A stretch of 64,000 nt of DNA from a virus, in IMG/VR virus record IMGVR_UViG_3300008110_000322, positions 4,494 through 68,493 of that record; one strand, 5' to 3'. Positions 19,218 through 59,421 of this stretch are shown in pieces. The notes under the pieces are model-generated. The model searched no databases. It saw nothing but the letters and a program-made list of their open reading frames with translations, and was not told the origin of the DNA. Every line of letters starts with the position of its first letter. Within the stretch, counting starts at the first letter, position 1. The translations under genes and the position numbers were made by a program.

Positions 19218-19223
19218 TAAATC

Positions 19224-43455: not shown

Positions 43456-43791
43456 ATGGCTGTATCCGAGGTTACAAACCTAATCATCTATAAGGGTGCA
43501 GACTTTGATGTTGAGTTTGATATTTTTCAAGCTGACAACAGCGAGCTTATTCTCAATAACTTGGGAACTAGTTTTGCCACCATTAGAAAATTTCCTAAAT
43601 CTCAGGTATTTGAAAATTTTGATGTTGAAATTCCACCATCCACTGGAACTGTTAAGTTGAGCCTGACTCCAGAGCAAACTTCCAATCTAGAGACTGGTAG
43701 GAATTATTTTGATGTTATTTTAACCATTAGTGGAAAAAGAATCCCCGTTCTTAAAGGTTCCGCGATTGTGGAGGATAGTTGCTCTGTATGA
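43456..43791 (+). CDS. small Ig-like/BppU-N-like virion protein
   Basis: NLIIYKGADF...GTVKLSLTPEQTSNLETGRNYFDV..VLKGSAIV pattern. Confidence 0.65.
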   Translation: MAVSEVTNLIIYKGADFDVEFDIFQADNSELILNNLGTSFATIRKFPKSQVFENFDVEIPPSTGTVKLSLTPEQTSNLETGRNYFDVILTISGKRIPVLKGSAIVEDSCSV

Positions 43792-44120
43792 GTTATAAAG
43801 TAAAGCTATCTTCAGGAAACAACTATAAAGTAAAGTTGTCCTCTAATGATGACCTCAAAACCAAAATTTCCTATCAAATTAATCTATTGCCAATGAACCT
43901 AAACGATTTAACAGACGTTACTATCAGAGGAAACATTGACAATTATGTATTGATGTACGACGCTGATCTAGGACAGTGGGTTGACAAAAATCCTGATGAA
44001 GTATTGTCTGCTGCGGTTGAAGACCAGACTCCAGGGTATGAAGGGCTTCCTGCTAACTTTATTAACCAACTAGTATTAGATTTAGATAATAAGATTAGTA
44101 TTGATGCTGGTGAATACTAA
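43788..44120 (+). CDS. hypothetical fibre-associated protein
   Basis: LNDLTDV..VLMYDADLGQW fibre motif and IDAGEY end; ATGA overlap at 43788. Confidence 0.6.
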   Translation: MSYKVKLSSGNNYKVKLSSNDDLKTKISYQINLLPMNLNDLTDVTIRGNIDNYVLMYDADLGQWVDKNPDEVLSAAVEDQTPGYEGLPANFINQLVLDLDNKISIDAGEY

Positions 44121-44175: not shown

Positions 44176-46536
44176 ATGGCTGTTCCACCCTACATTAGAA
44201 TTAAAAGATCGGCTGTTCCTGGGAAAAAACCTACAGTAGAACAACTGCCTTTAGGTGAATTCGGTTTTAATACCTATGATGCTGAACTTTATGCCCGTAG
44301 AGAAAGGGCCGGCATAGGTACCGATATTGTAAGGATCGGTGTAGGGGCAACAGTTACCAATATTCTTTATGTTACACAAGACGGAAGCGATACAAACACA
44401 GGAAAAAAACTCGGAGACGCAAAAAGAACAATCGGAGCAGCCCTCACAGCAGCATCAACAGGAACAGTTATTAAAGTTAGTGCTGGATCTTACTTAGAGA
44501 ACAATCCTTTAATTATTCCAGAACAAGTTTCTATTGTTGGTGATAGCCTTAGAGAAGTATCAGTATCTCCGCAAAATGCGGATAAAGATCTGTTCTATGT
44601 TTCTAATGGAAACTATGTGGCCGAAATGTCCTATACCGGGACATTGAATTCAGGGAAGGCTATTTTTGCTTTTAATCCAAATAAAGTTGGATATATTAAT
44701 CAATCTCCATATATTCAAAATTGCACTAACTTCATTCCTAATAGTATTGGACTAAAGATTGATGGTTCAAAAGCAATAGGACCACTCAAATCCATGGTTC
44801 TTGATAGTTACACCCAATACAATCAAGGTGGTATTGGATGTTCTATTACCAATGAGGGGTATGCTCAATTGGTATCCATGTTTACTATTTGCAATGACAT
44901 TGCAATTTATTGTGGATCTGGTGCTGCCTGCGATTTAACCAACTCAAACTCTTCTTTTGGTAATTATGCTCTAGTTGCCGATGGAGTCAGTCCTGTAAAA
45001 TACACTGGAATAATTACATCCAGTGCTGGAGAAAATGCCGATACATTTACCTTAGATCTTAGCACTCCTACATTAAATATTGCAAGTGCAACATACGATA
45101 ATACCACAGGGATCCTAACGGCAACAACTAACTCTCCTCATAAGTTTTCCGTGGGAATGGGAGTATCCATTGTTGGTCTAGGATTTACCTGTTCTTCTGG
45201 TCCAGGCATTTTAACATACCCTTCAGGTAATAAAGGATATGTGTTTGAGACAAGAACCGTAGCTCCTGGCAGATTCGTTGATAGTTATAATTTAATTCAG
45301 GCAAATAGACAAGAAATCATTGATGGGGCTTATGATGCCATAAGCACAGCATACCCTTCTTTTATAAACCCAAGTCCTGACAAATGTAGAAGGGATTTGG
45401 GTTATATTGTAGATGCAGTGTCTTTGGATGTGAGGGACTATACCAGCAGAAATACCATAGATTCAACTAGGGCCTATTTTAATCTTAGTGGCGCCTTATT
45501 GAGCAGTGGTCTGCAGGGAGAAATTCCCCAAACTATAACGGCATTTACTACAGCTAGAGACTTAATGAAGCTGGCTGTTACCAATAATTTAACGCAAAAA
45601 GATTTAACACTACCAAATGACCCATTAACTGGTAGTAATACTAGCACCAGTTCTTGTGCTAACGTTCAGTCTTTTATTGATAATTTGGTTGGTATATTAA
45701 CCACTAGATTATCTGCTGGTGATATTAACGGAGTGAATGCCCTACCTGCAGTTTCATTGGCAAGTACAACATTTAGTGTATACGTTGGTGTGTCCACTCT
45801 TGCTCATACTTATAATTCTGGTGGAACAGTAAGGATTAATGCAGTAAGACCTTTTGATGGGCAGGTTGTTTATTTTGATAGATTGTACTATACGGTCGGT
45901 GGAATTGATATTGTTTCAGGTGGATCGGGTTATACGGGTAATCTTGACGTAATAATTGGAGAACCAGAAACTGCCTGGGGAATTCCTGCAACTGCAGTTG
46001 CTGAAGTTAAGAATGGTTCTGTTGTGGCTGTAGAAATGATCTCAAATGGTCGTGGATATACTTCCATACCATCCGTAACCTTTAGTTCTCCAGATGTTGG
46101 ATTTAATACTGCTGTAGGAACGGCAAATCTTGTTCCTAGTTATTATTCTATACAGAATTCAACCCCAGTATCTGCCGGAATTTGCACTATTACTATTACA
46201 GATAACGTACCTTATTCTGTAGGTGTAGGTACAGAGGTTCTATTTTTTAAACAAAGTAGGGTTTTAGCTTCTGGTCATTCCCTTGAATATATTGGTTCAG
46301 GTACAAATATTGCCACTGCTCTACCACAAAATGGTGGAGTGCCCGTACAGGCTAAAGAAGCAGATACCAGAAATGGTGGTCTAGTTGTATACACTTCAAC
46401 TGATCATTCCGGTAACTTTAGAATTGGTGATGGTGTTGTTATTAATCAGCAAACTGGAACTATTTCTGGTACTTTCTATTCAAAGAGTCTATTTTCAACA
46501 ATGACTCCGTTTATTCTTGCATTAGGAGGAGATTAA
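44176..46536 (+). CDS. tail fibre/spike-like protein with beta-helix (pectin-lyase-like) domain
   Basis: IRIKRSAVPGKKP..LPLGEFGFNTYD anchor; LYVTQDGSDTNTG..AKRTIGAAL..GSYLENNP..VGDSLR beta-helix start; SPYIQNCT. Confidence 0.75.
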   Translation: MAVPPYIRIKRSAVPGKKPTVEQLPLGEFGFNTYDAELYARRERAGIGTDIVRIGVGATVTNILYVTQDGSDTNTGKKLGDAKRTIGAALTAASTGTVIKVSAGSYLENNPLIIPEQVSIVGDSLREVSVSPQNADKDLFYVSNGNYVAEMSYTGTLNSGKAIFAFNPNKVGYINQSPYIQNCTNFIPNSIGLKIDGSKAIGPLKSMVLDSYTQYNQGGIGCSITNEGYAQLVSMFTICNDIAIYCGSGAACDLTNSNSSFGNYALVADGVSPVKYTGIITSSAGENADTFTLDLSTPTLNIASATYDNTTGILTATTNSPHKFSVGMGVSIVGLGFTCSSGPGILTYPSGNKGYVFETRTVAPGRFVDSYNLIQANRQEIIDGAYDAISTAYPSFINPSPDKCRRDLGYIVDAVSLDVRDYTSRNTIDSTRAYFNLSGALLSSGLQGEIPQTITAFTTARDLMKLAVTNNLTQKDLTLPNDPLTGSNTSTSSCANVQSFIDNLVGILTTRLSAGDINGVNALPAVSLASTTFSVYVGVSTLAHTYNSGGTVRINAVRPFDGQVVYFDRLYYTVGGIDIVSGGSGYTGNLDVIIGEPETAWGIPATAVAEVKNGSVVAVEMISNGRGYTSIPSVTFSSPDVGFNTAVGTANLVPSYYSIQNSTPVSAGICTITITDNVPYSVGVGTEVLFFKQSRVLASGHSLEYIGSGTNIATALPQNGGVPVQAKEADTRNGGLVVYTSTDHSGNFRIGDGVVINQQTGTISGTFYSKSLFSTMTPFILALGGD

Positions 46537-46540
46537 TAGA

Positions 46541-46882
46541 ATGGCATTAGCTCTTAACGTTTTCAGGACAGTAACTACAATAGTACCAACATCCCAAGTT
46601 GGAATCTACACTGCTCCCGTTGGTTATACGGGTGTAGTCCTATTGGCTCAGGTAGCCAATATCGGTAATACATCTGCGGATATTTCTTTTTCCCACCAAA
46701 GATCTGTAGCTGGCATTGCAGTAACAACAGAAATGCTGAAAAATTATCCTATTTCCGCTAATGATACTGCAAATCTTTTAGCTGGAAAATTAGTGTTAGA
46801 AAGTGGAGATAAATTAGTTATATCTGGTAGTAATAACACCAATCTTAAATTCATCTCAAGTATTCTAGAAACTCTTAACTAA
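46541..46882 (+). CDS. small virion structural protein
   Basis: IYTAPVGYTGVVLLAQVAN..GKLVLESGD..SILET; AGGAGGAG RBS upstream. Confidence 0.65.
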   Translation: MALALNVFRTVTTIVPTSQVGIYTAPVGYTGVVLLAQVANIGNTSADISFSHQRSVAGIAVTTEMLKNYPISANDTANLLAGKLVLESGDKLVISGSNNTNLKFISSILETLN

Positions 46883-46887
46883 TAAAA

Positions 46888-49800
46888 ATGTCAAAGTATC
46901 TCAGTAACCGTCAAAAAAATCTAAAGATTGGCATTAGTTCTTATACTGAATCACAAACAGTATTAGAGGTTACTGGTAATACACTAGTTACTGGTGTTTC
47001 TACAATATCAGCAAATAGTTCTACTGATGCATTAAGAATTACTCAAACTGGAACTGGTAATGCTCTGGTTGTTGAAGATAGCACTAATCCAGATTCAACT
47101 CCTTTTGTTGTTACCGCTACAGGTTCTGTTGGTATTGGAACTACAAACCCAGAAGGAACTGGATCTGTATCATTATCTGGAATTGCCTTAGCAGTAAGAG
47201 GTACTGGATTTTTTAAAGATATCAGAATAGGAAATGCACACCCAAATCAATTTTTCCAAAGAATATCTGCCGAAGGCAACACAGGAATAAATTTTGAGGC
47301 TTATGGTAATTATGTTGGAGGATTTTATAGTACAGATTATCCTTTAGGTCTTCAGTTAAGAAATACTTCGGCATTATATTGGTCTAATACTACTTCGGCA
47401 GCATTAGCAGGAAATGCTGATCTTTACTTATATCGTGATAGTAGCGGAGTATTAGCACAAAGAAATGTCGGAGTAGGTCAGACCTTCCGCATATACAATA
47501 CTTTTACGGGAGTAACAACCAACTTTGAGAGAGCAAATCTTGGTTGGAATAATAATGTCTTTATTGTAGGAACTGAAAAAGGTTCTTCAATTGGAACTGC
47601 AAGACAAATGGAGTTCCAAACCGATGGAACCACCAGAGTTGCTATTACTACTACAGGTCTTGTTGGTGTTGGTACTACTAATGCCACTCAATCTTTAGAC
47701 GTTAATGGTAACGTAAGAGTACGGGGTGGTATAGTTGATAGTAATAATCAAATAGGACTAGCCGGCTCTATTCTGATATCTACTGGTATCGGAATAAGTT
47801 GGACAACTCCAGAAGCTGGGCTTAGTGTTCAGGGTTCACAAGGTACAACTGGCAGCCAAGGATCTCAGGGAACTCAAGGTAGTTTAGGAGTACAAGGATC
47901 TCAAGGAACCCAAGGTTTACAAGGTGTTCAAGGAACTCAAGGTGGATTAGGATCTCAGGGCTCAATTGGCGCTCAAGGTGTTCAAGGAAGAATTGGGGCT
48001 CAAGGTATTCAAGGTTCCCAAGGTGGACTAGGTTCACAGGGGGCTCAAGGTGGTCAAGGTTCAATTGGTGTTCAGGGAGCGCAAGGAACATTAGGCGCTC
48101 AAGGTGTTCAAGGAAATACTGGATCCCAAGGTGGTACTGGTTCGCAGGGAAGCCAGGGTTTATTAGGTTCTCAAGGCAGTCAAGGAACAACAGGTGCTCA
48201 GGGTTCTATAGGAGCACAAGGATTACAAGGAATTCAAGGTACCCAAGGTGGTTTAGCTGCTCAAGGTTCTCAGGGAACTCAAGGTGGATTAGGTGCTCAA
48301 GGTAGCCAAGGTGTCCAAGGTAGACAAGGGGCTATTGGTGCTCAGGGGTCTCAGGGTGTTCAGGGTGGTCTAAGTGCTCAAGGTGCCGCCGGTAGTCAGG
48401 GTGCCCAAGGTGGATTAGGTGCTCAAGGTATTCAAGGCGGTTTAAGTGCTCAAGGTGCCGCCGGTAGTCAGGGTGCCCAAGGTGGATTAGGTGCTCAAGG
48501 ATCCCAAGGTTCTCAAGGTGGGCTAGGTTCACAAGGTTCAACTGGAGCCCAAGGTTTACAGGGAACAAGCGGAACTCAGGGTAGCCAAGGAACTCAGGGT
48601 GGATTAGGTTCACAAGGTAGTCAGGGTACTCAAGGTGTCCAAGGTGGATTAAGCGCTCAAGGTACAGCAGGTAGTCAGGGTGCCCAAGGTGGATTAGGTA
48701 CTCAGGGGTCTCAGGGTGTCCAAGGTATTCAAGGAAGACAGGGAGCTATTGGGCCTCAGGGTCTTCAAGGTATTCAGGGTGGGCTGGCTGCTCAAGGTGC
48801 TGCAGGTAGTCAAGGTCTGCAGGGTGTTCAAGGTGGTTTAGCTGCTCAAGGCGCTGCGGGAAGTCAAGGCGGATTAGGCGCTCAGGGGTCTCAGGGAACT
48901 CAAGGTATTCAAGGTGTTCAGGGTGGTCTAAGTGCTCAAGGAAGTGCTGGCAGTCAAGGTCTACAGGGGTCTCAGGGAACTCAGGGTGGATTAGGTTCAC
49001 AAGGTAGTCAAGGATCTCAAGGTGGATTAGGAGCCCAAGGCGTCCAAGGTGGTTTAAGCGCTCAAGGTGGATTAGGTGCTCAAGGTAGCCAAGGATCTCA
49101 AGGTGGATTAGGCGCCCAAGGATCTATAGGCAGCCAAGGTTCCGTTGGCAGTCAGGGAACTCAAGGATTACAGGGATCTCAGGGATCACAAGGTACTACT
49201 GGATCACAGGGCTCTACCGGAAGTCAAGGGACTCAGGGTGGGTTAGGCGCTCAGGGTGTTCAGGGTGGATTAAGTGCTCAAGGTATCCAAGGTACTCAGG
49301 GTATTATAGGCCCAAAGGGTAATGACGGTAGTTCTGTTTCAATTATAGGATCTGTTCCTGATGTTAATGTAGCTCCTCCCAATGATCCCCAACAAACTTT
49401 AAATACTGCTTTCCCCTCCGCAGTTGCTGGTAATGGAGTTATTGATGAGCTTACTGGAGATCTTTGGGTTTATACAGGAACTAGTTGGAATAATGTTGGT
49501 AATATTCGCGGTCCACAGGGAACTACAGGAAGTCAAGGTGCTCAAGGATCTCAGGGGACTATAGGTGCTCAAGGATTTTCAGGTTCTCAAGGTAGCCAAG
49601 GTGCTCAAGGTGGTCTAGGTGTTCAGGGTTCACAAGGTACAACAGGCGCTCAGGGCGCTTCTGGAAGCCAAGGATTACAAGGAACTCAGGGTGTTCAAGG
49701 CGGATTAAGTGCTCAAGGTGCTGCTGGGGCTCAGGGCCTTCAGGGTGCTCAAGGCCCACAAGGAAGACAGGGTGTTATCGGTCCTCAAGGATTACAGGGT

Positions 49801-52800
49801 AGCCAGGGTGTTCAAGGCGGATTAAGTGCTCAAGGTGCTGCTGGGGCTCAGGGTGTTCAGGGTGGATTAAGTGCTCAAGGTAGTCAAGGGACTCAGGGTG
49901 GATTAGGTACCCAAGGTGTCCAAGGTGGGTTAAGTGCTCAAGGGACGGCCGGAAGTCAAGGTAGCCAAGGAAGTCAAGGAGTGCAGGGCGGCTTGTCAGC
50001 TCAAGGTGGAGCTGGTAGCCAAGGTCTGCAGGGTGTTCAAGGTGGTTTAGCTGCTCAAGGTAGCCAGGGATCTCAGGGAACTCAAGGTGGATTAGGTGTT
50101 CAGGGATTACAAGGTTCTCAGGGTGGATTAAGTGCTCAAGGCTCTCAGGGCACACAAGGGGGAATAGGAGTACAGGGAGTACAAGGTAGCCAGGGATCTC
50201 AAGGTGGATTAGGTGTTCAAGGTGTCCAAGGTGGGTTAAGTGCTCAAGGTGCTGCTGGTAGTCAAGGTTCTCAGGGAACTCAAGGTGGATTAGGTGTTCA
50301 GGGTCTACAGGGTGTTCAGGGTGGTTTAGCCGCTCAGGGTAGCCAGGGCACTCAAGGTGGCTTGGGGGTTCAGGGATTACAAGGTAGCCAAGGTGTCCAA
50401 GGTGGATTAGGTCATCAGGGCATTCAAGGTGTTCAAGGTGGATTAGCTGCTCAGGGTAGCCAGGGCACTCAGGGGGGTCTAGGTTCTCAGGGTGTTCAAG
50501 GTGGGCTATCTGCACAGGGCGGCACAGGTAGCCAAGGTCTGCAGGGTGTTCAAGGTGGTTTAGCTGCTCAAGGCAGCCAAGGATCTCAAGGTGGATTAGG
50601 TGCTCAAGGTGGCTTAGGTGCTCAGGGATCTCAGGGTGGAGTAGGCAGTCAAGGTTCTCAGGGAACCCAAGGTGGATTAGGTGTTCAAGGTGTCCAAGGT
50701 GGACTAAGCGCTCAAGGTGCCGCAGGTAGCCAAGGCTTGCAAGGTGTTCAAGGTGGTCTAAGCGCTCAAGGTGCTGCAGGTAGTCAAGGTTCTCAGGGCG
50801 TTCAAGGAACTCAAGGTATTCAAGGTGGTTTAAGTGCTCAAGGATCACAAGGTAGTCAGGGTACTCAAGGCGTTCAAGGTGGCTTAAGCGCTCAAGGTGC
50901 CGCAGGCAGCCAAGGATTACAAGGTGTTCAGGGTGGATTAAGTGCCCAAGGAACACAGGGATCTTCTGGTAGTCAGGGTGGTGTTGGTTCCCAAGGTTCT
51001 ATTGGTTCTCAGGGTAGCCAAGGAACCCAAGGTGGATTAGGTACTCAAGGATCAGGAACTCAAGGTGGATTAGGAGTCCAAGGTGTTCAAGGTGGTCTAA
51101 GCGCTCAAGGTGCCGCAGGAAGCCAAGGTGTTCAAGGTGGTCTAAGCGCTCAAGGGGCCCAAGGTGGATTAGGTTCTCAGGGATCACAGGGAACTACTGG
51201 CTCTCAAGGTGGATTAGGTGCCCAAGGTTTACAAGGCGTTCAAGGTGGATTGTCTGCTCAGGGAGCCGCAGGGGCTCAAGGATTGCAGGGTGTCCAAGGT
51301 GGTCTAAGTGCTCAAGGGGCGGCCGGCGCTCAAGGTTTACAAGGGGCTCAAGGCCCACAGGGACGCCAAGGTGCTATTGGCGCTCAAGGTGGATTAGGTG
51401 CCCAAGGTTTACAGGGTGTTCAAGGTGGACTATCCGCTCAAGGTGCGGCGGGAGCGCAAGGTCTCCAAGGGTCTCAGGGTGCCATCGGTTCTCAAGGTGG
51501 GCAGGGAACTCAAGGTGGCTTAGGTGTTCAAGGTGTCCAAGGTGGCTTAGCTGCTCAAGGCGGACAGGGCACTCAAGGTGGTTTAGGAGTTCAAGGATCA
51601 CAAGGGGGAATTGGTGCTCAAGGTGGCTTAGGTGCTCAAGGTCTCCAAGGCGTTCAAGGTGGTCTGGCTGCTCAAGGCGGACAAGGTACTCAAGGTGGTT
51701 TAGGTGCTCAAGGTGTCCAAGGTGGTTTAAATGCCCAAGGCGCGGCGGGTGCTCAGGGTCTACAGGGCACTCAAGGTGACATAGGTGCTCAAGGTAGCCA
51801 AGGTATTCAGGGCAGACAGGGTGCAATCGGTCCTCAAGGTTTACAAGGTATTCAAGGTGGATTAAGCGCTCAGGGAGCGGCAGGTAGCCAGGGTCTCCAG
51901 GGTGTTCAAGGTGGTTTGGCTGCTCAAGGTGGGCAGGGTACTCAAGGTGGTTTAGGCGCTCAGGGGTCACAGGGAACTACTGGCGCTCAAGGTGTTCAAG
52001 GTGGTCTAAGTGCTCAAGGTGCCACAGGAAGCCAAGGTGTTCAGGGTGGATTAAGCGCTCAAGGTTCACAGGGAACTCAAGGAGGATTGGGTGCCCAAGG
52101 TGTTCAGGGCGGACTGAGCGCTCAGGGGTCTCAAGGTGTCCAAGGTGGTTTGGGGGCTCAAGGCTTACAAGGGGCTCTAAATGCTCAGGGGGCCGCTGGG
52201 GCGCAAGGCATTCAAGGATTACAGGGCGCTCAAGGTCCGCAGGGTAGGCAAGGTGCAATCGGTCCTCAAGGTTTACAAGGATCTCAAGGAACTCAAGGTG
52301 GATTAAGTGCTCAGGGTGCTGCGGGTAGTCAGGGATTGCAGGGTTCTCAAGGTGTCCAGGGTGGATTGAGTGCTCAAGGTGGTGTCGGTTCTCAGGGTGC
52401 TCAAGGTGGACTCAGCGCTCAAGGTGCGGCCGGTGCTCAAGGGTTACAGGGATCACAGGGAACCCAAGGTGGACTAGGCGCTCAAGGTGTTCAAGGTGGA
52501 CTCAGCGCTCAGGGCTCTCAGGGTGTTCAAGGCGGTTTAGGTGCTCAGGGTCTACAGGGTATTCAGGGTGTTCAAGGTATTCAGGGTAGACAAGGTGCTC
52601 TGGGGCCCCAAGGTGCCCTAAATGCTCAGGGAGCCGCTGGCGCTCAAGGTTTGGTTGGTTCTATCGCTAACTATTCAAGAAAGACCTCTCTTTATACTGC
52701 AGTCAACAGAGATCAACTAATTGCTGATACTTCTGGTGGAACCTTTACCATTAACCTCCCAGCAACTCCAGCAACTGGTGATCTAGTAAGAATTGCTGAT

Positions 52801-53370
52801 GGAGCTAGCTGGGCAACCAACAACCTCACAGTAGGTCGTAATGGTTCAACAATTGAAGGCACTGCTGAAGATTTAACTGTTGATATTGCTGGAGTCACTC
52901 TTGACTTTGTTTATGATGGTACTACATGGGAAGTTTATCCCTCTACTGGACTTAGCGTTATTTCTCCAGTTGATGTAGTAACAAGTGCCACTTATTATCC
53001 AGTATTTGTTGATGGTGCTGGTGGAAATAGGGCGGCAAATATTAGAACAACGTCTACGGCATTTAGCTTTAATCCTGCAACTTGCACTTTGACTGCAGTT
53101 GACTTTAACTCAACTTCTGATATTAACCTAAAGACAAATGTACAAACAATTGAAAATGCCCTAGATAAAATAAATAAACTTGAGGGCATTACCTTCAATT
53201 GGAAGAGGGATAATCGTCCATCTGTAGGTATCATCGCGCAAGATGTTGAAAAAGTATTTCCTGAGCTAGTAATGGAGACTAACGGAGAAAAAACAGTTAA
53301 TTATAATGGCCTTATTGGATTATTGGTTGAGGCCATTAAGGATCTAAATAAAAAGTTAGAGAATACTTGA
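46888..53370 (+). CDS. collagen-like (Gly-X-Gln) fibre with C-terminal peptidase S74 intramolecular chaperone
   Basis: VGIGTTNP fibre motifs; about 1500 aa of G-X-Q triplets; C-terminal TSDINLKTNV..GIIAQDVEKVFPELV..VNYNGLIGLLVEAIKDL. Confidence 0.88.
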   Translation: MSKYLSNRQKNLKIGISSYTESQTVLEVTGNTLVTGVSTISANSSTDALRITQTGTGNALVVEDSTNPDSTPFVVTATGSVGIGTTNPEGTGSVSLSGIALAVRGTGFFKDIRIGNAHPNQFFQRISAEGNTGINFEAYGNYVGGFYSTDYPLGLQLRNTSALYWSNTTSAALAGNADLYLYRDSSGVLAQRNVGVGQTFRIYNTFTGVTTNFERANLGWNNNVFIVGTEKGSSIGTARQMEFQTDGTTRVAITTTGLVGVGTTNATQSLDVNGNVRVRGGIVDSNNQIGLAGSILISTGIGISWTTPEAGLSVQGSQGTTGSQGSQGTQGSLGVQGSQGTQGLQGVQGTQGGLGSQGSIGAQGVQGRIGAQGIQGSQGGLGSQGAQGGQGSIGVQGAQGTLGAQGVQGNTGSQGGTGSQGSQGLLGSQGSQGTTGAQGSIGAQGLQGIQGTQGGLAAQGSQGTQGGLGAQGSQGVQGRQGAIGAQGSQGVQGGLSAQGAAGSQGAQGGLGAQGIQGGLSAQGAAGSQGAQGGLGAQGSQGSQGGLGSQGSTGAQGLQGTSGTQGSQGTQGGLGSQGSQGTQGVQGGLSAQGTAGSQGAQGGLGTQGSQGVQGIQGRQGAIGPQGLQGIQGGLAAQGAAGSQGLQGVQGGLAAQGAAGSQGGLGAQGSQGTQGIQGVQGGLSAQGSAGSQGLQGSQGTQGGLGSQGSQGSQGGLGAQGVQGGLSAQGGLGAQGSQGSQGGLGAQGSIGSQGSVGSQGTQGLQGSQGSQGTTGSQGSTGSQGTQGGLGAQGVQGGLSAQGIQGTQGIIGPKGNDGSSVSIIGSVPDVNVAPPNDPQQTLNTAFPSAVAGNGVIDELTGDLWVYTGTSWNNVGNIRGPQGTTGSQGAQGSQGTIGAQGFSGSQGSQGAQGGLGVQGSQGTTGAQGASGSQGLQGTQGVQGGLSAQGAAGAQGLQGAQGPQGRQGVIGPQGLQGSQGVQGGLSAQGAAGAQGVQGGLSAQGSQGTQGGLGTQGVQGGLSAQGTAGSQGSQGSQGVQGGLSAQGGAGSQGLQGVQGGLAAQGSQGSQGTQGGLGVQGLQGSQGGLSAQGSQGTQGGIGVQGVQGSQGSQGGLGVQGVQGGLSAQGAAGSQGSQGTQGGLGVQGLQGVQGGLAAQGSQGTQGGLGVQGLQGSQGVQGGLGHQGIQGVQGGLAAQGSQGTQGGLGSQGVQGGLSAQGGTGSQGLQGVQGGLAAQGSQGSQGGLGAQGGLGAQGSQGGVGSQGSQGTQGGLGVQGVQGGLSAQGAAGSQGLQGVQGGLSAQGAAGSQGSQGVQGTQGIQGGLSAQGSQGSQGTQGVQGGLSAQGAAGSQGLQGVQGGLSAQGTQGSSGSQGGVGSQGSIGSQGSQGTQGGLGTQGSGTQGGLGVQGVQGGLSAQGAAGSQGVQGGLSAQGAQGGLGSQGSQGTTGSQGGLGAQGLQGVQGGLSAQGAAGAQGLQGVQGGLSAQGAAGAQGLQGAQGPQGRQGAIGAQGGLGAQGLQGVQGGLSAQGAAGAQGLQGSQGAIGSQGGQGTQGGLGVQGVQGGLAAQGGQGTQGGLGVQGSQGGIGAQGGLGAQGLQGVQGGLAAQGGQGTQGGLGAQGVQGGLNAQGAAGAQGLQGTQGDIGAQGSQGIQGRQGAIGPQGLQGIQGGLSAQGAAGSQGLQGVQGGLAAQGGQGTQGGLGAQGSQGTTGAQGVQGGLSAQGATGSQGVQGGLSAQGSQGTQGGLGAQGVQGGLSAQGSQGVQGGLGAQGLQGALNAQGAAGAQGIQGLQGAQGPQGRQGAIGPQGLQGSQGTQGGLSAQGAAGSQGLQGSQGVQGGLSAQGGVGSQGAQGGLSAQGAAGAQGLQGSQGTQGGLGAQGVQGGLSAQGSQGVQGGLGAQGLQGIQGVQGIQGRQGALGPQGALNAQGAAGAQGLVGSIANYSRKTSLYTAVNRDQLIADTSGGTFTINLPATPATGDLVRIADGASWATNNLTVGRNGSTIEGTAEDLTVDIAGVTLDFVYDGTTWEVYPSTGLSVISPVDVVTSATYYPVFVDGAGGNRAANIRTTSTAFSFNPATCTLTAVDFNSTSDINLKTNVQTIENALDKINKLEGITFNWKRDNRPSVGIIAQDVEKVFPELVMETNGEKTVNYNGLIGLLVEAIKDLNKKLENT
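47830..52660 (+). repeat. 9-bp-period coding repeat (GGN-NNN-CAR) with one globular interruption at ~49321-49509
   Basis: Hundreds of caaggt/cagggt units; GC-richer than the flanks. Confidence 0.95.
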
Positions 53371-53371
53371 A

Positions 53372-55717
53372 ATGGCATTATTAAGTGATATTCTTGGAAG
53401 TGCTTATCAAGGAACACAAGGTTTAATTGGCGCTCAAGGCGTTCAAGGTAACCTTGGGGTGCAGGGTACAACGGGGGCTGGGGGCCAAGGTGCCGTAGGT
53501 ACACAGGGGCCTTTTGGTGCTCAGGGTGTTCAAGGTATTCAAGGTGGATTAAGTCCACAGGGAACTCAGGGGTCTCAAGGCGTCCAGGGTTTGCTCGGTC
53601 CGCAGGGGACTCAAGGTGTTCAAGGTGGCCTAGCTGCCCAAGGTTCACAGGGTCTTCAGGGCGGCCAAGGTATACAAGGTGCTCTCGGCGCCCAAGGAAC
53701 TATTGGTGATAATGGTGGTGCTCCCTATATCTTTAGCACTGCAACTGCAGATGCTGATCCCGGAAATGGTACCCTTAGATACAATAGTAGTAGCTTTGGT
53801 TCAATAACTCAGATCTTTATTGATAACCAAGATAATCTGTCAAACAACCTAACCGCTTGGTATGAAACTTGGGATGATTCTACCACTACTACCAACAGAG
53901 GATATCTTGTTCTTACAAGTGCAGCTAGTAGCGGCACTATTGTCAATATCTTTAGGGTCACTGGCGGCGTTACTAGTGCTACAGGATATTATAGGATCCC
54001 AGTTACTCATGTTGCCGGAAACAGCTTACCCGCCAATAATACAGTATTAAGTGTATCATTTTGTAGGAGCGGTGATCAGGGTACTCAGGGTGCTATTGGC
54101 TCTCAGGGGGCCCAAGGTCTTCAGGGAACTTTAGGCGCCCAAGGAACGATTGGTAATACTGGTGGCGTTCCTTATGTATTCACAACTGGAACTGGAGACA
54201 ACGATCCTGGGGACGGAAATTTTAAATATAACAACTCAACAATTGCTTCAGTAACTCAGATCTTTATTGATAACTTAGACAATTTAGGTAATACTCAAAC
54301 ATCTTGGTATAATACTTGGGATGATTCTACTTCTACCATTAAAGGTTATGTGGTATTAGGTAGTGCTGCCAGTTCTGGAATAACTGAAAATATATTTGCT
54401 GTTACTGGTGCTGTTACTGTTGCTACAGGTTATTATAAGATTCCTGTTTCTTATGTTTCCGGTTCTCTGCCAACCAACAACGCTGTTTTATCCTTTAATT
54501 TTATAAGAAATGGCGATCAGGGTCCTCAAGGTGCTGTTGGTGCCCAAGGTTCTCAAGGTGTTCAAGGTGGTCTGGGACCTCAAGGGTTGCAAGGGGCTCT
54601 AAATGCTCAAGGTGCTGCTGGGGCTCAGGGTCTACAAGGGGCCCAAGGTCCGCAGGGTAGGCAAGGTGCAATCGGCCCTCAAGGTTTACAGGGTTCACAG
54701 GGACAGCAGGGCACACAAGGTATTCAAGGTGGCCTAAGTCCACAGGGGGGCGTTGGTTCGCAGGGTCCACAGGGAGCCATTGGTGCTCAAGGTTCTCAGG
54801 GCGTTCAAGGTGGTTTAGCTGCTCAAGGCGGGCAAGGTGCCATTGGATCTCAAGGCGCAATTGGGGCTCAAGGATTACAGGGCGTTCAAGGTGGTCTAAG
54901 CGCTCAAGGTGCAGCAGGGGCTCAAGGTCTCCAAGGAACAGTTGGCGCTCAAGGTGGATTAGGTGCCCAAGGTTTGCAGGGCATTCAGGGTACTTTAAAC
55001 TCTCAGGGGGCTGCTGGAGCGCAAGGAATCCTAGGTGCTCAAGGTGTTCAAGGTACTCTAAGCTCTCAGGGTGCTGTTGGCGCTCAGGGTACTACAGGAA
55101 CCGCAGGAAGTAACCCTAACTGGTATGGTGTAGTTTATGGCGCATGGGGAGACTGTGACCCTCAGGATTTGATGGACCATGCTCTAACTAGCGGAACAAT
55201 TGCACCAACTCCAACTAACATCAGCATCAGCGTAGCAAGAATTGCTTATTTTTCCCCTCCTGCCGATATTACGGTCAATAAAATTCGTTTCTTCGGTGTA
55301 GGCGCAACAACTAACGTTTATCGTGTTGCAATTTATAATGGCGACACATTAGCTAGATTAACTAACGAACTTGCTTTCAGTACCGCAGCGAACACCTGGG
55401 GTTCGGCAGGCTCTGCTCTTAACTTAACACTAACTGCCAACCAAACTTATTTTATTGCAGTATCAGTAAACGCAACTGGTACTACAGCAGGTATCCTCGC
55501 AATGAATACTACTGTTGCTGCAACTACAGGACAAATGACAGTTCTTCCTAAGAGTTTCCCCGGTTCTTTGGATATTGATAGTCATTACATCAGAGGCGCA
55601 TTTGCTCAGTTTGCGGTTACCAGTGGTGCCCTACCTGCAACTGCAGCAACAATCGCAACTCAGGCAGCATGGACTGGTGGTTTCCCTGCATTCTGGTTGG
55701 ATAGTAACAACGCATAA
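53372..55717 (+). CDS. second collagen-like (Gly-X-Gln) fibre with duplicated globular domain
   Basis: Three G-X-Q tracts separated by two homologous ~120-aa domains; C-terminal beta-sandwich-like domain. Confidence 0.85.
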   Translation: MALLSDILGSAYQGTQGLIGAQGVQGNLGVQGTTGAGGQGAVGTQGPFGAQGVQGIQGGLSPQGTQGSQGVQGLLGPQGTQGVQGGLAAQGSQGLQGGQGIQGALGAQGTIGDNGGAPYIFSTATADADPGNGTLRYNSSSFGSITQIFIDNQDNLSNNLTAWYETWDDSTTTTNRGYLVLTSAASSGTIVNIFRVTGGVTSATGYYRIPVTHVAGNSLPANNTVLSVSFCRSGDQGTQGAIGSQGAQGLQGTLGAQGTIGNTGGVPYVFTTGTGDNDPGDGNFKYNNSTIASVTQIFIDNLDNLGNTQTSWYNTWDDSTSTIKGYVVLGSAASSGITENIFAVTGAVTVATGYYKIPVSYVSGSLPTNNAVLSFNFIRNGDQGPQGAVGAQGSQGVQGGLGPQGLQGALNAQGAAGAQGLQGAQGPQGRQGAIGPQGLQGSQGQQGTQGIQGGLSPQGGVGSQGPQGAIGAQGSQGVQGGLAAQGGQGAIGSQGAIGAQGLQGVQGGLSAQGAAGAQGLQGTVGAQGGLGAQGLQGIQGTLNSQGAAGAQGILGAQGVQGTLSSQGAVGAQGTTGTAGSNPNWYGVVYGAWGDCDPQDLMDHALTSGTIAPTPTNISISVARIAYFSPPADITVNKIRFFGVGATTNVYRVAIYNGDTLARLTNELAFSTAANTWGSAGSALNLTLTANQTYFIAVSVNATGTTAGILAMNTTVAATTGQMTVLPKSFPGSLDIDSHYIRGAFAQFAVTSGALPATAATIATQAAWTGGFPAFWLDSNNA

Positions 55718-55722
55718 TAGTC

Positions 55723-55730
55723 TATAAATA
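55723..55730 (+). promoter_or_regulatory. late promoter (TATAAATA)
   Basis: Exact T4 late consensus 22 nt before the 55753 ATG. Confidence 0.7.
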
Positions 55731-55752
55731 ACAGCACTGAATTACACAAATT

Positions 55753-56724
55753 ATGAATTTTGTAAAGGCCGTCCTTGATAATGGCGGAGATATAAAGCCT
55801 TTGGTTATTCCATCGGAGCTAACAAATGGAACCGGATTATGTAATCCATCCGTTTTTACTTTAAACGATAAAATATTAGTTAATCTAAGGCACATCCAAT
55901 ACACTCTGTACCATTCTGAGCTTTGTAAATATGAACATCAGTATGGTCCGTTGGTGTATCTAAATCCAGAAAATGATATAACCTTAACTACTACAAATTA
56001 TATCTGTGAACTTAATAATGATCTAGAGATTATCCACTATAGTAAGGTTGATACATCTTCTCTTGATAAGCCCCCTATTTGGGAGTTTGTCGGATTAGAA
56101 GATTCAAGGCTAGTAAAATGGGGGGATAAGGTTTATCTTACTGGTGTTAGGAGGGATACAACTACCAATGGTCAAGGTAGAATGGAGTTGAGTGAACTTG
56201 ATTTTACTGATACTGAAGTTAAGGAAATTGATCGTTTCCGTATTCCAGCCCCAGGAAAAGATGATTCATATTGTGAAAAAAATTGGATGCCAATTCTGGA
56301 TATTCCCTATCATTATGTAAAGTGGACAAATCCAACTGAAGTTGTAAAAGTTGACCCTGAAGAGAAAACATGCGAGACCGTTCATTTAGGTGAATGGAAG
56401 GAAATGCCGAAGGATCTTCGCGGAGGCTCTCAGGTAATTTCTTTTATGGATGGCTACCTGACAATCAACCACGAAACCGATCTCTATAAGAGCGAAGCTG
56501 GAAGAAAGGACGCAACCTATAGACATAGATTTACCTATTGGGATAAAGATTGGAATATTGTAAAGTTCTCTAAGGTCTTTAGTTTTATGGAAGCAAAGAT
56601 TGAATTTGCTTGTGGTATGGCTAAGCTTGAAGATGATTACTTAATTACTTTTGGGTTCCAAGATAATGCAGCTTATATTTTAAGAGTACCCGGACAATTT
56701 TTGGAGGACTTTATCAATGAATGA
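55753..56724 (+). CDS. beta-propeller glycosidase/phosphorylase-like protein (GH130/GH43-like)
   Basis: CNPSVF, GLEDSRL, CEKNWMP, LRGGSQ and IEFACG motifs. Confidence 0.65.
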   Translation: MNFVKAVLDNGGDIKPLVIPSELTNGTGLCNPSVFTLNDKILVNLRHIQYTLYHSELCKYEHQYGPLVYLNPENDITLTTTNYICELNNDLEIIHYSKVDTSSLDKPPIWEFVGLEDSRLVKWGDKVYLTGVRRDTTTNGQGRMELSELDFTDTEVKEIDRFRIPAPGKDDSYCEKNWMPILDIPYHYVKWTNPTEVVKVDPEEKTCETVHLGEWKEMPKDLRGGSQVISFMDGYLTINHETDLYKSEAGRKDATYRHRFTYWDKDWNIVKFSKVFSFMEAKIEFACGMAKLEDDYLITFGFQDNAAYILRVPGQFLEDFINE

Positions 56725-57961
56725 TGCTCTTTATGCCTATGTGAAAGATACGGAAAATCCTGAACTTAACTTTAACCTAGCTTTAGAATACGAGAAGGTA
56801 GGACAAACAGCGGCTGCTATCTCATTCTTTTTGCGTGCTGCCGATAGAACGCAAGATTTAGATTTGGCTTATGAATGCTTCCTAAGAATGGCATCATGCT
56901 TTAATCTACAGAACAACAGAGTTTATACAGTAAGGGGATTATATCAGCAAGCAATTGCACTATTGCCCAAAAGACCCGAGGCTTATTTTCTGTACGGTAG
57001 ATATTTGGGTTGGATCACTCAATATGCAGAAGCTTATACCATGCTCAATGTTGGTTTAGCTACTGCAGACTTCTCAACACCAGAGCTAAGAACCAATGTT
57101 GAATACCCTGGTAAGTATGGATTGATCTTTGAGAAGGCAGTTTCTGCTTATTGGTGGGGTAAGAACATGGAATCCCGCAAATTATTTCATGATCTTGTTG
57201 ATGATTATTGGGATGTAATGACAGATCATTACAAATCCATGGTTGAAAGTAATATCACTAGATTGGGTTCTGGACCAGAATCTCAGGCATTTACCTATTA
57301 CTTTAAGCAAGACCACGATAAACTGCGCTTTAACTTTAAGGGAAGCAAAGAGATAGAACGCAACTATTCACAAGTTTACCAAGATATGTTTATTCTTTCT
57401 GTTCTAAATGGGAAGAAAAACGGAACTTATCTTGAAGTAGGTGGTGCGGATCCTTTCCTTGGAAATAATACATTTTTGCTTGAGCAAGATTATGATTGGA
57501 AAGGTATATCCCTAGAAAATGATGCTAAGTTTATTGATAATTACAAGAATAATAGGAAGAACCCTGTACTACATACAGATGCCCTAAAACTTGATTACAA
57601 GAAACTACTAGAGACCCACTTTGAAACAAAGGAAATAGATTATCTACAGTTAGATATTGAGCCGGCCCGCAATACTTTTGAAGTTCTTCTTTCAATTCCA
57701 TTTGAGGAATACAAGTTTGCTGTTATCACATATGAGCATGATTATTATGTTGATGTTACAAAATCCTACAGAGACAAGTCCAGAAAGTATCTACAATTGA
57801 TGGGATATGAGCTAGTTGTAAATGATGTTTCTCCTGATGGCATCAGTAACTTTGAGGACTGGTGGGTACATCCAGACCTAGTGGATTCAGAAATCATCAA
57901 AGTTATGAAAGACAGTGATGACAAGACCAAAAAGGCAAAAAATTATATTCTATCAAAATGA
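56717..57961 (+). CDS. TPR protein fused to FkbM-type SAM methyltransferase
   Basis: TPR-like helices (QQAIALLPKRPEAYFLYG); YSQVYQDMF, GTYLEVGG..GNNT, IDYLQLDIEP, ITYEHD and EDWWV motifs. Confidence 0.75.
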   Translation: MNDALYAYVKDTENPELNFNLALEYEKVGQTAAAISFFLRAADRTQDLDLAYECFLRMASCFNLQNNRVYTVRGLYQQAIALLPKRPEAYFLYGRYLGWITQYAEAYTMLNVGLATADFSTPELRTNVEYPGKYGLIFEKAVSAYWWGKNMESRKLFHDLVDDYWDVMTDHYKSMVESNITRLGSGPESQAFTYYFKQDHDKLRFNFKGSKEIERNYSQVYQDMFILSVLNGKKNGTYLEVGGADPFLGNNTFLLEQDYDWKGISLENDAKFIDNYKNNRKNPVLHTDALKLDYKKLLETHFETKEIDYLQLDIEPARNTFEVLLSIPFEEYKFAVITYEHDYYVDVTKSYRDKSRKYLQLMGYELVVNDVSPDGISNFEDWWVHPDLVDSEIIKVMKDSDDKTKKAKNYILSK

Positions 57962-59421
57962 AGTTAAACAATTTCCCACCAGTCTATTACATTTCACTTG
58001 AAGAAAGTGCGGATAGGCAACAAAACCTTGCCGATCAGTTTTCAAATTGGGGCATAGAAAATTATACCCCAATGATCTTTAAAAGATTTGCGGAGTGTGA
58101 TGATGTAATACATGGTCCCCTTGTTCATACACTTAACAGCAGCAATAAAGGGGCTTCTACTTCTCACTTAAAATCAATAAAGAAATGGCTAACAGAAACA
58201 GATGAGCCCTATGCTGTATTTTTTGAAGATGATGTTTCATTGAAAACAGTAGAATACTGGGATTTTACTTGGTCCGATTTTATGGAGCAATTGCCCAAAG
58301 ACTGGGAAGCGGTTCAACTAATGTGGGTAAGGCCACATATGGTTAAAGTTGAATTCAGAAGAAGGTATCCTGATGATTGGTCTGCCACTGCATTCATGGT
58401 GACTAGAGAATATGGGCAGAAATTGGTTGACCGCTTCATGATCTCTGATAATGAATTTAATTATGATATGGATGGGCTACAGCCTATAGTAGAAAATGTT
58501 CTTTTTTCTCATGGTAATGTTTATACAGTACCACTATTTGTTGAAGAAACATTGCTGCCAACCACTTTCATAAATGCCCCAGAATTTGATGCCTCTCTTA
58601 TTGTTAACGGGCAAGGTGAATCCCATCACACTTCACAGGAGGCTGTTCTTGATTGGTGGAAGAACATAGGAAAAAATACCGCTCTCAAAAAATTGATGGG
58701 CACTGATGTATTCCCAACAACATTTGATTGGGGTGACTTTAATTCTGAATTACAAGATTCACTAAAAAAAGAAATAGGAAAGGAAAAAATCTATGAAAAA
58801 TTTTTTAGAGTCAACAGGCTTGATGTTGTTGTTGATATTGGAGCTAGTGTTGGTCCTTTTGTATACTCAATCTTAGATAGATCGCCAAAGGAAATTTACT
58901 GTATTGAGCCATCAAAAAATTTATTGCCTTCACTTGTAAATAATACAGCAAAGGTTCCACAAGATACTAAAATAACCTATATCAATAAGGCTATTAGTCA
59001 GGGTGATTTTGAGGTTAGAGTATTTGCCAAAGATAATAAAAATATCTATGGTAAGAATTATGACTATAATGAAATAACGTTCAGTGAATTCATTAAAGAA
59101 TACAATATCAAAAAAATTGATTTCCTTAAATTGGATTGTGAAGGTGGTGAGTACAGTGTTTTTAATGATGAAAATATTGACTGGATCCTTGAGAACGTTG
59201 ATAAGGTTGCAGCAGAGTTTCACTTAACTTACCCTGGTTGTCAAGAGAAATTTCGCAACTTTAGGGACAAGTATCTACAAAGATTCAACAACTATTATAT
59301 CATTTCAAACCAACAACAGAATATCCATGCTGGGGTTCAGCTTGATCTAACTAAGTGGATCTTTGATGACAGATTTTTTGACAATTATTATGGTGAACTT
59401 ATGGTCTATCTTTATAAATAA
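57958..59421 (+). CDS. GT25-like glycosyltransferase fused to FkbM-type methyltransferase
   Basis: YYISLEESADRQ, GASTSHLKSI, FFEDD and LPKDWEAVQL; then VVDIGASVGPF, CIEPS and IDFLKLDCEGGEY. Confidence 0.8.
   Translation: MKLNNFPPVYYISLEESADRQQNLADQFSNWGIENYTPMIFKRFAECDDVIHGPLVHTLNSSNKGASTSHLKSIKKWLTETDEPYAVFFEDDVSLKTVEYWDFTWSDFMEQLPKDWEAVQLMWVRPHMVKVEFRRRYPDDWSATAFMVTREYGQKLVDRFMISDNEFNYDMDGLQPIVENVLFSHGNVYTVPLFVEETLLPTTFINAPEFDASLIVNGQGESHHTSQEAVLDWWKNIGKNTALKKLMGTDVFPTTFDWGDFNSELQDSLKKEIGKEKIYEKFFRVNRLDVVVDIGASVGPFVYSILDRSPKEIYCIEPSKNLLPSLVNNTAKVPQDTKITYINKAISQGDFEVRVFAKDNKNIYGKNYDYNEITFSEFIKEYNIKKIDFLKLDCEGGEYSVFNDENIDWILENVDKVAAEFHLTYPGCQEKFRNFRDKYLQRFNNYYIISNQQQNIHAGVQLDLTKWIFDDRFFDNYYGELMVYLYK
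59413..59420 (+). promoter_or_regulatory. late promoter (TATAAATA)
   Basis: Overlaps the upstream stop, 19 nt before the 59440 ATG. Confidence 0.65.

Follow-up and report, generated by a model that had tools for sequence, protein, structure and literature searches.

Anatomy of a 2160-residue collagen-like fibre

The stretch of DNA analysed here (hereafter the window) comprises 64 kb of the 68.5-kb IMG/VR virus record IMGVR_UViG_3300008110_000322, whose completeness is estimated at 32%. At 46888..53370 (+) it contains an open frame of 2160 amino acids (P0001), the fibre gene that is the subject of this study, which features Pfam Collagen and Peptidase_S74 domains. The Collagen family (PF01391) matches the protein in four stretches with 312.6 bits against a cut-off of 27.2 (E 2.5e-95). 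An initial inspection of the letters, referred to below as the sequence-only reading, had proposed a very long Gly-X-Y fibre at this position, and the parsed frame with its 516 triplets bears this out. Coordinates refer to the window and, unless stated otherwise, to its + strand.

The fibre starts with a non-collagen region (amino acids 1-315, 46888..47832; start MSKYLSNRQKNLKIGISSYTE), whose ~30 first residues are conserved in the related fibres of loci L005, L015 and L029. The last part of this region (~amino acids 255-315, 47650..47832; ...GSILISTGIGISWTTPEAG) forms a junction module located immediately before the first triplet run. Three collagen-like runs follow: run A (amino acids 316-816, 47833..49335) opens with G-LSVQ-G and comprises 167 triplets with 9 Gly replacements, run B (amino acids 875-1387, 49510..51048) 171 triplets with 17, and run C (amino acids 1390-1923, 51055..52656) 178 triplets with 19. 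A non-collagen insert of 58 residues (amino acids 817-874, 49336..49509; ...SVSIIGSVPDVN...GDLWVYTGTSWNNVGNIR) separates runs A and B, and the dipeptide Gly-Ser (amino acids 1388-1389, 51049..51054), a one-residue interruption of the Gly-X-Gly type within GTQ-GS-GTQ, separates runs B and C. This register break lies where the sequence-only reading had placed it (amino acids 1385-1392, nucleotides 51040-51063). The globular insert described there is likewise present and ends at 49509 as given, but it starts at 49336 instead of 49321.

Downstream of the collagen-like shaft, the protein ends in two globular domains. The first is a beta-sandwich (~amino acids 1925-2020, 52660..52947; YSRKTSLYTA...ADTSGGTFTINLP...DGTTWEVY), identified by AlphaFold2 (AF2), Foldseek and phmmer. 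It is followed by a stretch (~amino acids 2021-2076, 52948..53115) that AF2 models as a monomer with low confidence (predicted local distance difference test, pLDDT, 41-60), and by an S74 intramolecular chaperone (amino acids 2077-2160, 53116..53370, stop codon included), recognised by Pfam, its SDINLK motif, AF2, Foldseek and phmmer.

Composition of the shaft

The three runs, each internally in register, add up to 516 Gly-X-Y triplets or 1548 residues; the parser used for comparing relatives and members of the same class counts 517. Gly occupies every third position over long uninterrupted runs (471 of 516), and all 45 exceptions (32 Ser, 10 Ala and 3 Asn) are in register. The X position is taken by Ala (129 of 516), Ser (112), Gly (95), Val (59), Thr (49), Leu (34) and Ile (15), with Pro (10), Arg (8) and others (5) as the remainder, so that Ser or Thr stands at X in 161 triplets. 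Gln is found at Y in 361 of 516 triplets (70%), followed by Leu (88), Ala (24), Ile (18), Thr (13) and others (12). Overall, Gly makes up 36.6% of the shaft, Pro 10 of the 1548 residues (0.6%), and Arg, Asp and Lys together 11 (0.7%). These counts agree with the earlier expectation of about 500 triplets dominated by Gln at Y and nearly devoid of Pro and charge. The X residues named in it (Ser, Thr, Ala, Val and Leu) were correct, but Gly, the third commonest residue at X, had been omitted. Judging from this composition, Gln at Y may act as a substitute stabiliser of the shaft.

Replaced glycines follow one motif that is kept by selection

All 45 non-Gly triplets lie within the motif G-[G/A]-L-[S/A/N]-A-Q, 43 of them after GGL and 2 after GAL, without loss of register; the recurring GGL-[S/A/N]AQ unit of the sequence-only reading, with Ser, Ala or Asn in place of Gly, is thereby recovered at 45 sites. 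The gaps between replaced glycines range from 5 to 24 triplets (15-72 residues), with modes at 6, 7 and 13 and a weak spectral peak near 7 triplets. They are never shorter than 5 triplets, a feature reproduced in none of 20000 random placements. The spacing is quasi-regular, with a minimum gap and without a strict period; the substitutions can therefore be called regular with respect to the minimum gap, but not in the sense of strict periodicity. Two unit types alternate along the shaft: GVQ-GGL-[S/A/N]AQ-GAA, in which GVQ precedes 35 and GAA follows 20 of the 45 motif copies, and G[T/S/A]Q-GGL-G[A/V/S/T]Q, which occurs in 39 copies.

At the DNA level, the 45 motif copies have 38 distinct 21-nucleotide spellings, in which Leu is written five ways and the Gly at X four ways. 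Ser at the Gly position uses an AGY codon in 28 of 32 cases, compared with 50 of 117 for Ser at X or Y, an excess consistent with codons that arose from GGY through one transition and were then retained for a long time. The repeats are 60-90% alike, and the longest exact repeat within 46888-55717 measures 58 nucleotides. Strain variants in contigs of other metagenome runs, counted in the 40 best-supported of 102 rows, are mostly synonymous (27 of 32 differing codons, and 23 of 26 within the collagen runs), and those at Gly codons are synonymous. Because of the many spellings, the AGY bias, the limited identity of the repeats and the mostly synonymous variants, we conclude from the DNA that the motif has been kept by selection, beyond what chance, recent copying or error would produce.

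A Gln-rich, Pro-poor class with a Ser/Ala rule

A search with run B retrieved 40,377 representative proteins at E<=1e-3, 585 of them at E<=1e-30. Against 7,995 scored long proteins, it matched 1,506 at E<=1e-3, and many of the 120 listed carry Collagen together with S74. We compiled 244 proteins with at least 30 triplets from the listed search matches plus P0001 and P0027, and defined a Gln-rich, Pro-poor class by Gln at Y in at least 50% of triplets and Pro below 8%. About half of the sample (121 of 244) falls in this class. The window fibre has the most triplets in it (517, followed by 495 and 269; median 179), more even than the collagen VII matches with 496, and also the highest density of Gly replacements (8.7%, followed by 7.3%, 5.9% and 5.5%).

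In-register non-Gly triplets are present in 73 of the 120 other class members. The 239 Gly replacements in these 120 proteins are Ser (126), Ala (104), Asn (5) and Val (4), and recur in motifs such as GPQ-SIQ (39), GPQ-AFQ (21), GTQ-AAQ (14) and GTQ-SVQ (12); other IMG/VR fibres feature GEF-AGQ, GTQ-ATQ and GGL-SDQ. The replaced Gly frequently has a hydrophobic neighbour, namely L or F on its N-terminal side or I, V, F or Y on its C-terminal side. The octapeptide QGGLSAQG occurs in 26 IMG/VR stretches, which carry 1-5 copies each; in 21 of these stretches it lies within triplet runs. For the extended unit GGLSAQGAAG, IMG/VR gave no match outside the window's own record. Peptide and osteogenesis-imperfecta work established Ser and Ala as the least disruptive replacements of Gly in the triple helix. 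A rule favouring these two residues is difficult to account for without a structural constraint on the axial position, which argues for a triple helix with softened sites. Literature searches for Gly-X-Gln-type repeats found no collagen paper among those listed, those on cyanophage plus collagen gave generic mentions only, and those on G4G-type collagen interruptions gave clinical papers only. As far as these searches show, the class and its pseudo-glycine rule are common yet undescribed.

The sequence-only reading had also considered a polyglycine-II bundle with its turns at the GGL-SAQ sites. The Gly share of the region and the 95 Gly residues at X would suit such a fold. Polyglycine-II domains of the snow-flea antifreeze and S16 gp38 types consist of polyproline-II strands of about ten residues connected by regularly spaced turns. 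The shaft features neither short strands nor regular turns: its runs continue over 167-178 triplets, and the proposed turns would be irregularly spaced, 15-72 residues apart. In addition, Gln at Y and the Pfam Collagen score of 312 bits fit collagen, the S74 domain is a device for parallel trimers, and many proteins without GGL obey the same replacement rule. We regard the bundle as highly improbable.

Non-collagen modules and chain ends

Judged from sequence conservation, the N-terminus of the fibre is likely the virion-attachment end, since its ~30 first residues are shared by the fibres of L005, L015 and L029. The N-terminal region contains an ALRITQTGxGNALVVEDSTNPD module and weakly matches generic tail-fibre families in PHROGs (E 2e-4 and 8e-4). 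No homology to gp34 or another T4 fibre N-terminus was found at this end in Pfam, PHROGs or cultured phages. In the ESM Atlas, amino acids 1-312 retrieve viral and bacterial clusters without names, in one of which 66% carry PF26696. The junction module, with the consensus ...GSILVSTGxGxSWTxPxxAG, directly precedes a Gly-X-Y run in all seven of its occurrences (P0001, L015, L041, L005, twice in P0126, and L029).

The insert between runs A and B also recurs inside collagen runs, with 55% identity in L029 and 44% in L015-L017. It is matched by the PHROG tail-fibre families phrog_3904 and phrog_819, and a Pfam search of amino acids 817-874 returned no match. A prediction with three copies of amino acids 770-960 scored 0.07 relative to a mark of 0.32 in a run without controls, from which we draw no conclusion on a trimer. 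The PfN, PfC and PCoil domains were not found in the fibre by Pfam searches. In a single cassette, locus L029 (5188-18823 of a 219-kb IMG/VR record) encodes two or more collagen-like fibres, of which one combines register-breaking G-LSNQ-G interruptions with the insert domain of the window fibre. More generally, L029 and P0124 have register-breaking G-[L/I]-S-[N/D]-Q-G interruptions instead of in-register replacements.

The C-terminal region was modelled by AF2 from a 17-row alignment with a mean pLDDT of 76.8; the sandwich and the S74 domain are confident, and the ~55 residues between them are poorly defined. The beta-sandwich (pLDDT 84-97 over most of the domain) matches the N-terminal region of CBA120 TSP4 in Foldseek (7rej, E 6.8e-6, root-mean-square deviation 1.9 Å over 97 columns) as well as T4 gp10 (2fl8, E 6.5e-5) and T4 gp9; phmmer matches it to 7rfv (E 3e-4), and the module recurs in L005, L015 and L029. 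Domains of the gp10/TSP4 type are docking platforms for other fibres, and it is our guess that the sandwich knob carries the product of the next gene. Within the poorly defined stretch (amino acids 2021-2076), a YYPVF...FSFNP motif is conserved in the alignment.

Peptidase_S74 is matched at amino acids 2077-2128 with 63.4 bits against a cut-off of 22 (E 2.3e-17) and with 70.2 bits in the genome search. The domain (pLDDT 83-94) finds 7dc3 (E 2.3e-4), 3gw6 (E 4.1e-3) and 3gud (E 3.3e-2) in Foldseek, and 6f45 (E 6.4e-6) in phmmer. Its start, SDINLK at amino acids 2077-2082, aligns with SDxxLK in ten and with SDENEK in one of the 11 relatives whose aligned sequence includes the motif. In the endosialidase literature, Ser...Lys at the start of the S74 domain is the cleavage motif. 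By analogy, the S74 domain is presumably removed by cleavage once the trimer has folded. Searches with tblastn further link the C-terminal region of the fibre to the distal fibre ends of T5-like and CC31-type phages (27-33% identity).

Related fibres in environmental viruses

Relatives of the N-terminal region were found in 345 IMG/VR stretches, of which 80 loci were kept. Eleven of these 80 have an open reading frame with at least 20 triplets, and the Gly-replacement motif of the window was not found in any of them. A search of long proteins with the N-terminal region gave 169 relatives at E<=1e-3, with collagen runs in 1 of the 120 listed. The cassette around the fibre gene is syntenic in L005-L008 and L015-L017, which share the upstream 786-residue fibre (73-87% identity) and a 113-residue open reading frame (80%). 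L005-L008 also share, after the fibre genes, the downstream open reading frame that starts at 55753 in the window, the glycosyltransferase and the tetratricopeptide repeat (TPR) protein.

Counted with the same parser, the shafts comprise 149 triplets in L005, 220 in L041, 473 in L015 and 517 in the window. Related fibres have in common the ~30 first residues, the junction module, the insert, the beta-sandwich and the S74 end, and the shafts of the relatives contain a great deal of Ser and Thr, in GST and GTT triplets. Judged from these alignments, the arrangement is the one customary in phage fibres, whose attachment end is conserved while shaft and tip recombine.

Genome context and sugar cassette

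The window encodes a T4-type structural module. PHROGs identify homologues of gp25, gp6, gp8, gp13-20 and gp21-23, including baseplate wedge, neck and tail-completion proteins, small and large terminase, sheath, tube and portal (37025-38725). The portal gene is followed by ~21 kb of fibre and sugar genes and then by the prohead protease, the scaffold and the major capsid protein. The portal protein is 70% identical to those of Synechococcus phages B3 and B23 and 65-70% identical to those of other cyanomyoviruses, and the metagenome runs that hold parts of the stretch, from 12 studies, are labelled freshwater or lake. By its sequence, the phage is a freshwater T4-like myovirus with core genes closest to those of Synechococcus phages, and its hosts are probably cyanobacteria.

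The cassette, entirely on the + strand, opens with a Polysacc_synt_2 dehydratase/epimerase (38753-39685), recognised by profile matches, and an RmlD-like reductase fused to a glycosyltransferase (39682-41304), whose relatives in the PDB are dTDP-4-dehydrorhamnose reductases (E 1e-13). These are followed by a protein similar to L-shaped-tail-fibre-assembly proteins (43456-43791; PHROGs), an open reading frame upstream of the fibre (43779-44120), the 786-residue tail-fibre protein (44176-46536; PHROGs) and, directly upstream of the fibre gene, the 113-residue open reading frame (46541-46882). Downstream lie the next fibre gene (P0122, 781 amino acids, 53372-55717), which starts 2 nucleotides after the fibre stop, an open reading frame (55753-56724), the TPR protein (56717-57961) and a glycosyltransferase fused to an FkbM methyltransferase (57958-59421). 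The last protein matches GT25 below the cut-off (19.8 compared with 24 bits), and a PDB sequence search with it gave no match. These sugar genes share the cassette with the fibre and are partly syntenic. The case for Ser/Thr glycosylation as a stabiliser of the fibre is only circumstantial, and genes of this type serve phages in other ways too.

P0122 is written in the same style as P0001, with 105 triplets in runs of at least 10 and a C-terminal globular domain. Its 8 Gly replacements are distributed among GGLSPQ, GGLAAQ, GALNAQ, GGLSAQ, GTLNSQ and GTLSSQ. The protein also includes two copies of a ~150-residue globular module (...NSDPGxGxxxxN...IFIDNxDN...WDDST...), each flanked by collagen runs; the DNA of the copies is 79% identical over 94 nucleotides (53796-53889 and 54243-54336), and the module is also found in L015, L029, L041 and P0187.

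In the virion, the protein most likely serves as a fibre of the tail or baseplate. A role as a neck whisker, head fibre or collar fibre would agree with the location of the gene between the homologues of portal (gp20) and prohead protease (gp21), and with an N-terminal region that matches no known baseplate-binding domain in Pfam or PHROGs. However, the cassette neighbours match tail-fibre and L-shaped-tail-fibre-assembly families in PHROGs, the C-terminal region resembles distal tail-fibre ends of T5-like and T4-like phages, and the sandwich resembles baseplate gp10 and the N-terminal part of TSP4, which together make a location on the head or neck improbable.

Two features of the fibre region could be mistaken for something else. 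Its guanine-cytosine content of 52-55%, compared with ~38% elsewhere, might suggest an island of foreign DNA; we rejected this idea, since the value follows from the GGN, GCN and CAR codons of the fibre gene. Long antisense open reading frames within 47822-51970 (-), such as 49775-50956 (-; 393 amino acids), arise opposite the collagen runs because of the GGN-NNN-CAR codon pattern and were not accepted as genes.

Elsewhere in the window, a 4031-residue open reading frame (5531-17626, +) directly after the gp6-like gene belongs to the giant baseplate wedge family phrog_2885 (3329 bits). Two open reading frames (19224-23510 and 23675-26830, +; region 19221-26830) match the N- and C-terminal halves of phrog_358; their stop-to-stop frames, which differ, overlap by 67 nucleotides (23444-23510). 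Phage B3 has a single 7.7-kb open reading frame at this position, and the pair could be a split gene or a frameshift, either real or due to a sequencing error. An open reading frame of 345 amino acids without an assigned function (30925-31962, +) separates the gene of the small terminase from that of the large one. The frame of the latter (31995-34106, +; 703 amino acids) has a GTG start and is matched by PHROG terminase profiles in separate pieces; phage B3 features a comparable extra open reading frame and a terminase of 880 amino acids. An HNH endonuclease (2136-2714, +) precedes the gp25-like gene, and a homing-endonuclease-like open reading frame (60499-61245, +) is inserted between the prohead protease and scaffold genes.

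A jointed triple helix as the favoured interpretation

We favour, with fair though limited confidence, a homotrimeric collagen-type shaft of up to ~440 nm contour length that includes 45 selected, 'soft' pseudo-glycine sites. The collagen rise is 0.286 nm per residue or 0.86 nm per triplet, and 516 triplets at this rise would give a contour of several hundred nm, as the sequence-only reading had proposed. Its suggestion of a collagen-like, trimeric and kinked filament is likewise supported, namely by the Pfam Collagen match, the S74 domain with SDINLK, the seven of seven junctions, and the 230 Ser or Ala among the 239 replacements in other class members.

In such a fibre, the conserved N-terminus would attach the protein to the particle, and the C-terminal S74 domain would gather three chains and then, as its family suggests, be cut off at Ser2077. 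The three Gly-X-Y runs would zip into a collagen-type triple helix, for which the junction module and the 58-residue insert may serve as trimer registration points. At lake temperatures, the helix could owe its stability to the chain length, the end domains and the hydration and hydrogen bonding of the Gln side chains at Y. The 45 sites would place the smallest tolerated side chains axially, beside Gly at X, and could thus loosen or kink the shaft every 5-24 triplets (~4-20 nm). Persistence lengths of collagen range from 15 to 60 nm; a worm-like chain with these values would typically reach ~100-250 nm. A thin flexible tether of this kind might widen the capture radius in dilute water, and it would end in a gp10/TSP4-like knob, perhaps carrying or located beside the product of the next gene.

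A more far-reaching version of this interpretation is tentative and less probable. It combines a natural triple helix of nearly half a micrometre that needs neither Pro nor charge, is held by Gln at Y and is perhaps decorated with O-linked 6-deoxy-sugars by the cassette enzymes; some 45 evolved hinges that turn it into a jointed 'fishing line' in lake water; and a Ser/Ala rule that would represent a general, undescribed principle of flexibility tuning.

A first alternative accepts the Gly/Gln-rich region as real but without a stable triple helix, as a disordered, hydrated tether or a partly helical chain that is trimeric only at the globular modules. It draws on the scarcity of Pro and charge and on the share of axial non-Gly residues, the highest among the 121 Gln-rich proteins. 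A disordered linker, however, would not need a strict Gly at every third position over 167-178 triplets with replacements limited to Ser, Ala and Asn, nor synonymous Gly-codon variants in other strains or a junction module that always marks the start of a run. We therefore hold this alternative to be rather improbable.

A second alternative, unlikely but with a better claim than a disordered tether, concerns the repeat length. Here the fibre is real, and the 516 triplets are an assembly product in which short reads from several strains were joined through similar repeats, the true shaft being shorter or differently ordered. Contigs from all four other runs contain only the flanks (46000-48132 and ~51220-55900) as long pieces; in three of the four, a contig tracks the window to 48132 and then continues with 81 unmatched letters and a 63-nucleotide match 1.9 kb downstream. 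Because the central part (48132-51200) is found in short pieces and contigs depart at 48132, the repeat length may vary by strain or be mis-assembled. Contigs of other runs also feature many repeat-to-repeat joints, and the shafts of related fibres differ greatly in length, from 149 to 473 triplets. Conversely, the longest exact repeat of 58 nucleotides is below the usual read length and the repeat copies are only 60-90% identical, the frame stays open over 6.5 kb with a single register break, and gaps in Logan contigs prove nothing, since the way these contigs are built makes them end at short repeats. Three records (L015-L017) moreover carry an independent relative of 2763 amino acids with 473 triplets.

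In addition to these contig data, several points weigh against the collagen-type shaft. It features neither of the known collagen stabilisers, a high Pro or hydroxyproline content or many charge pairs. Since the chains would form a homotrimer, every replacement site would be triple, and three non-Gly residues per level at 45 levels could prevent a continuous helix. One review (PMC10765305) reports disrupted folding for a bacterial collagen in which Ser replaced Gly beside an interruption of 4 residues; it also describes interruptions of 1-4 residues as accommodated in the triple helix and conferring flexibility. The shaft is without an experimental or modelled structure, and the AF2 model of the N-terminal 321 residues (25-row alignment) is unusable at a mean pLDDT of 54. 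No Pfam family matches amino acids 1-312, nor was a recognised attachment domain found in the N-terminal region. The 41.7-kb stretch around the portal of phage B3, the nearest cultured relative examined, contains no homologue of the fibre gene; its portal-protease gap holds a small fibre set only. Moreover, the N-terminal 311 residues are matched by 1 of 50,697 cultured-phage records, so that virion proteomics or micrographs are not applicable, and RNA and virion evidence is absent, with no RNA dataset listed for the stretch.

The collagen-type shaft bears on how collagens are understood. Their stability is usually explained by Pro/hydroxyproline or charge pairs, and a replaced Gly is seen as a disease-type defect; the window shaft is kept by selection without either stabiliser and with 45 replaced glycines over 1548 residues. 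If triple-helical, it would provide a natural test bed for the effects of Gln-rich sequence and pseudo-glycines on stability and flexibility, suggest hydroxylation-free designs for recombinant collagens, and rank among the longest phage fibres known, with implications for host finding in dilute water. In the opposite case, the shaft shows that the Pfam signature calls collagen too readily in a large class of viral proteins.

Comparison with known systems

Collagen-like tail-fibre proteins of phages have been described to form trimers (Ghosh et al. 2012, PMC3368898). The E. coli prophage proteins EPclA-D (lambda Stf-type), treated in the same paper, likewise have a Gly-X-Y shaft between phage-fibre end domains, with Gln preferring Y. 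According to that account, however, they are highly charged, contain Pro in 48% of X positions and have collagen domains of at most 322 amino acids, compared with 0.6% Pro, 0.7% charged residues and 1548 residues in the window fibre, and Gln at Y amounts to 13% in its 'viruses' set, compared with 70% here. In the T4-like cyanophage P-SSM2, orf028 is reported to be about half Gly-X-Y and was proposed to be a tail fibre (Sullivan et al. 2005, PMC1079782); going by that description, which is the sole basis of this comparison, its X and Y residues are often Pro, Ser or Thr.

A C-terminal S74 domain with Ser...Lys is shared with the K1F endosialidase, T5 pb1 and S16/CC31-type gp37 (6f45, 3gw6, 4uw8), as far as the published descriptions go (PMC4690869). 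The shafts of these proteins are beta-structured, whereas that of the window fibre is collagen-like. Collagen combined with S74 has been reported in polinton-like viruses and phages (PMC12220804), without a composition analysis of this kind. The metagenomic fibres with both domains (P0123, P0126, P0187, and those of L005, L015, L029 and L041) belong to the same composition class as the window fibre.

Rhamnose genes adjoin bclA in Bacillus. Its product BclA, which forms the exosporium filament (PMC8968730), is a Pro-poor, glycosylated bacterial collagen of the Thr/Gln type, and the parallel with the RmlD-like enzyme of the cassette is suggestive. When the features of BclA are looked for in the window, the cassette offers sugar and glycosyltransferase genes and the shaft has Ser or Thr at 161 of 516 X positions; the BclA repeats, however, are of the GPT type with Thr at Y, which is found in only 13 of 516 triplets here, and the C-terminal domains differ. 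Non-fibrillar animal collagens (types IV, VII and X) accommodate short breaks that give flexibility, as described in PMC10765305, and the window fibre has one such break of the Gly-X-Gly type. It differs from animal collagens in that 45 of its 47 irregularities keep the register, conform to one motif and would occur in a homotrimer. Collagen-like phage fibres and the combination of collagen with S74 have both been published before, and the window fibre is an extreme member of a common class.

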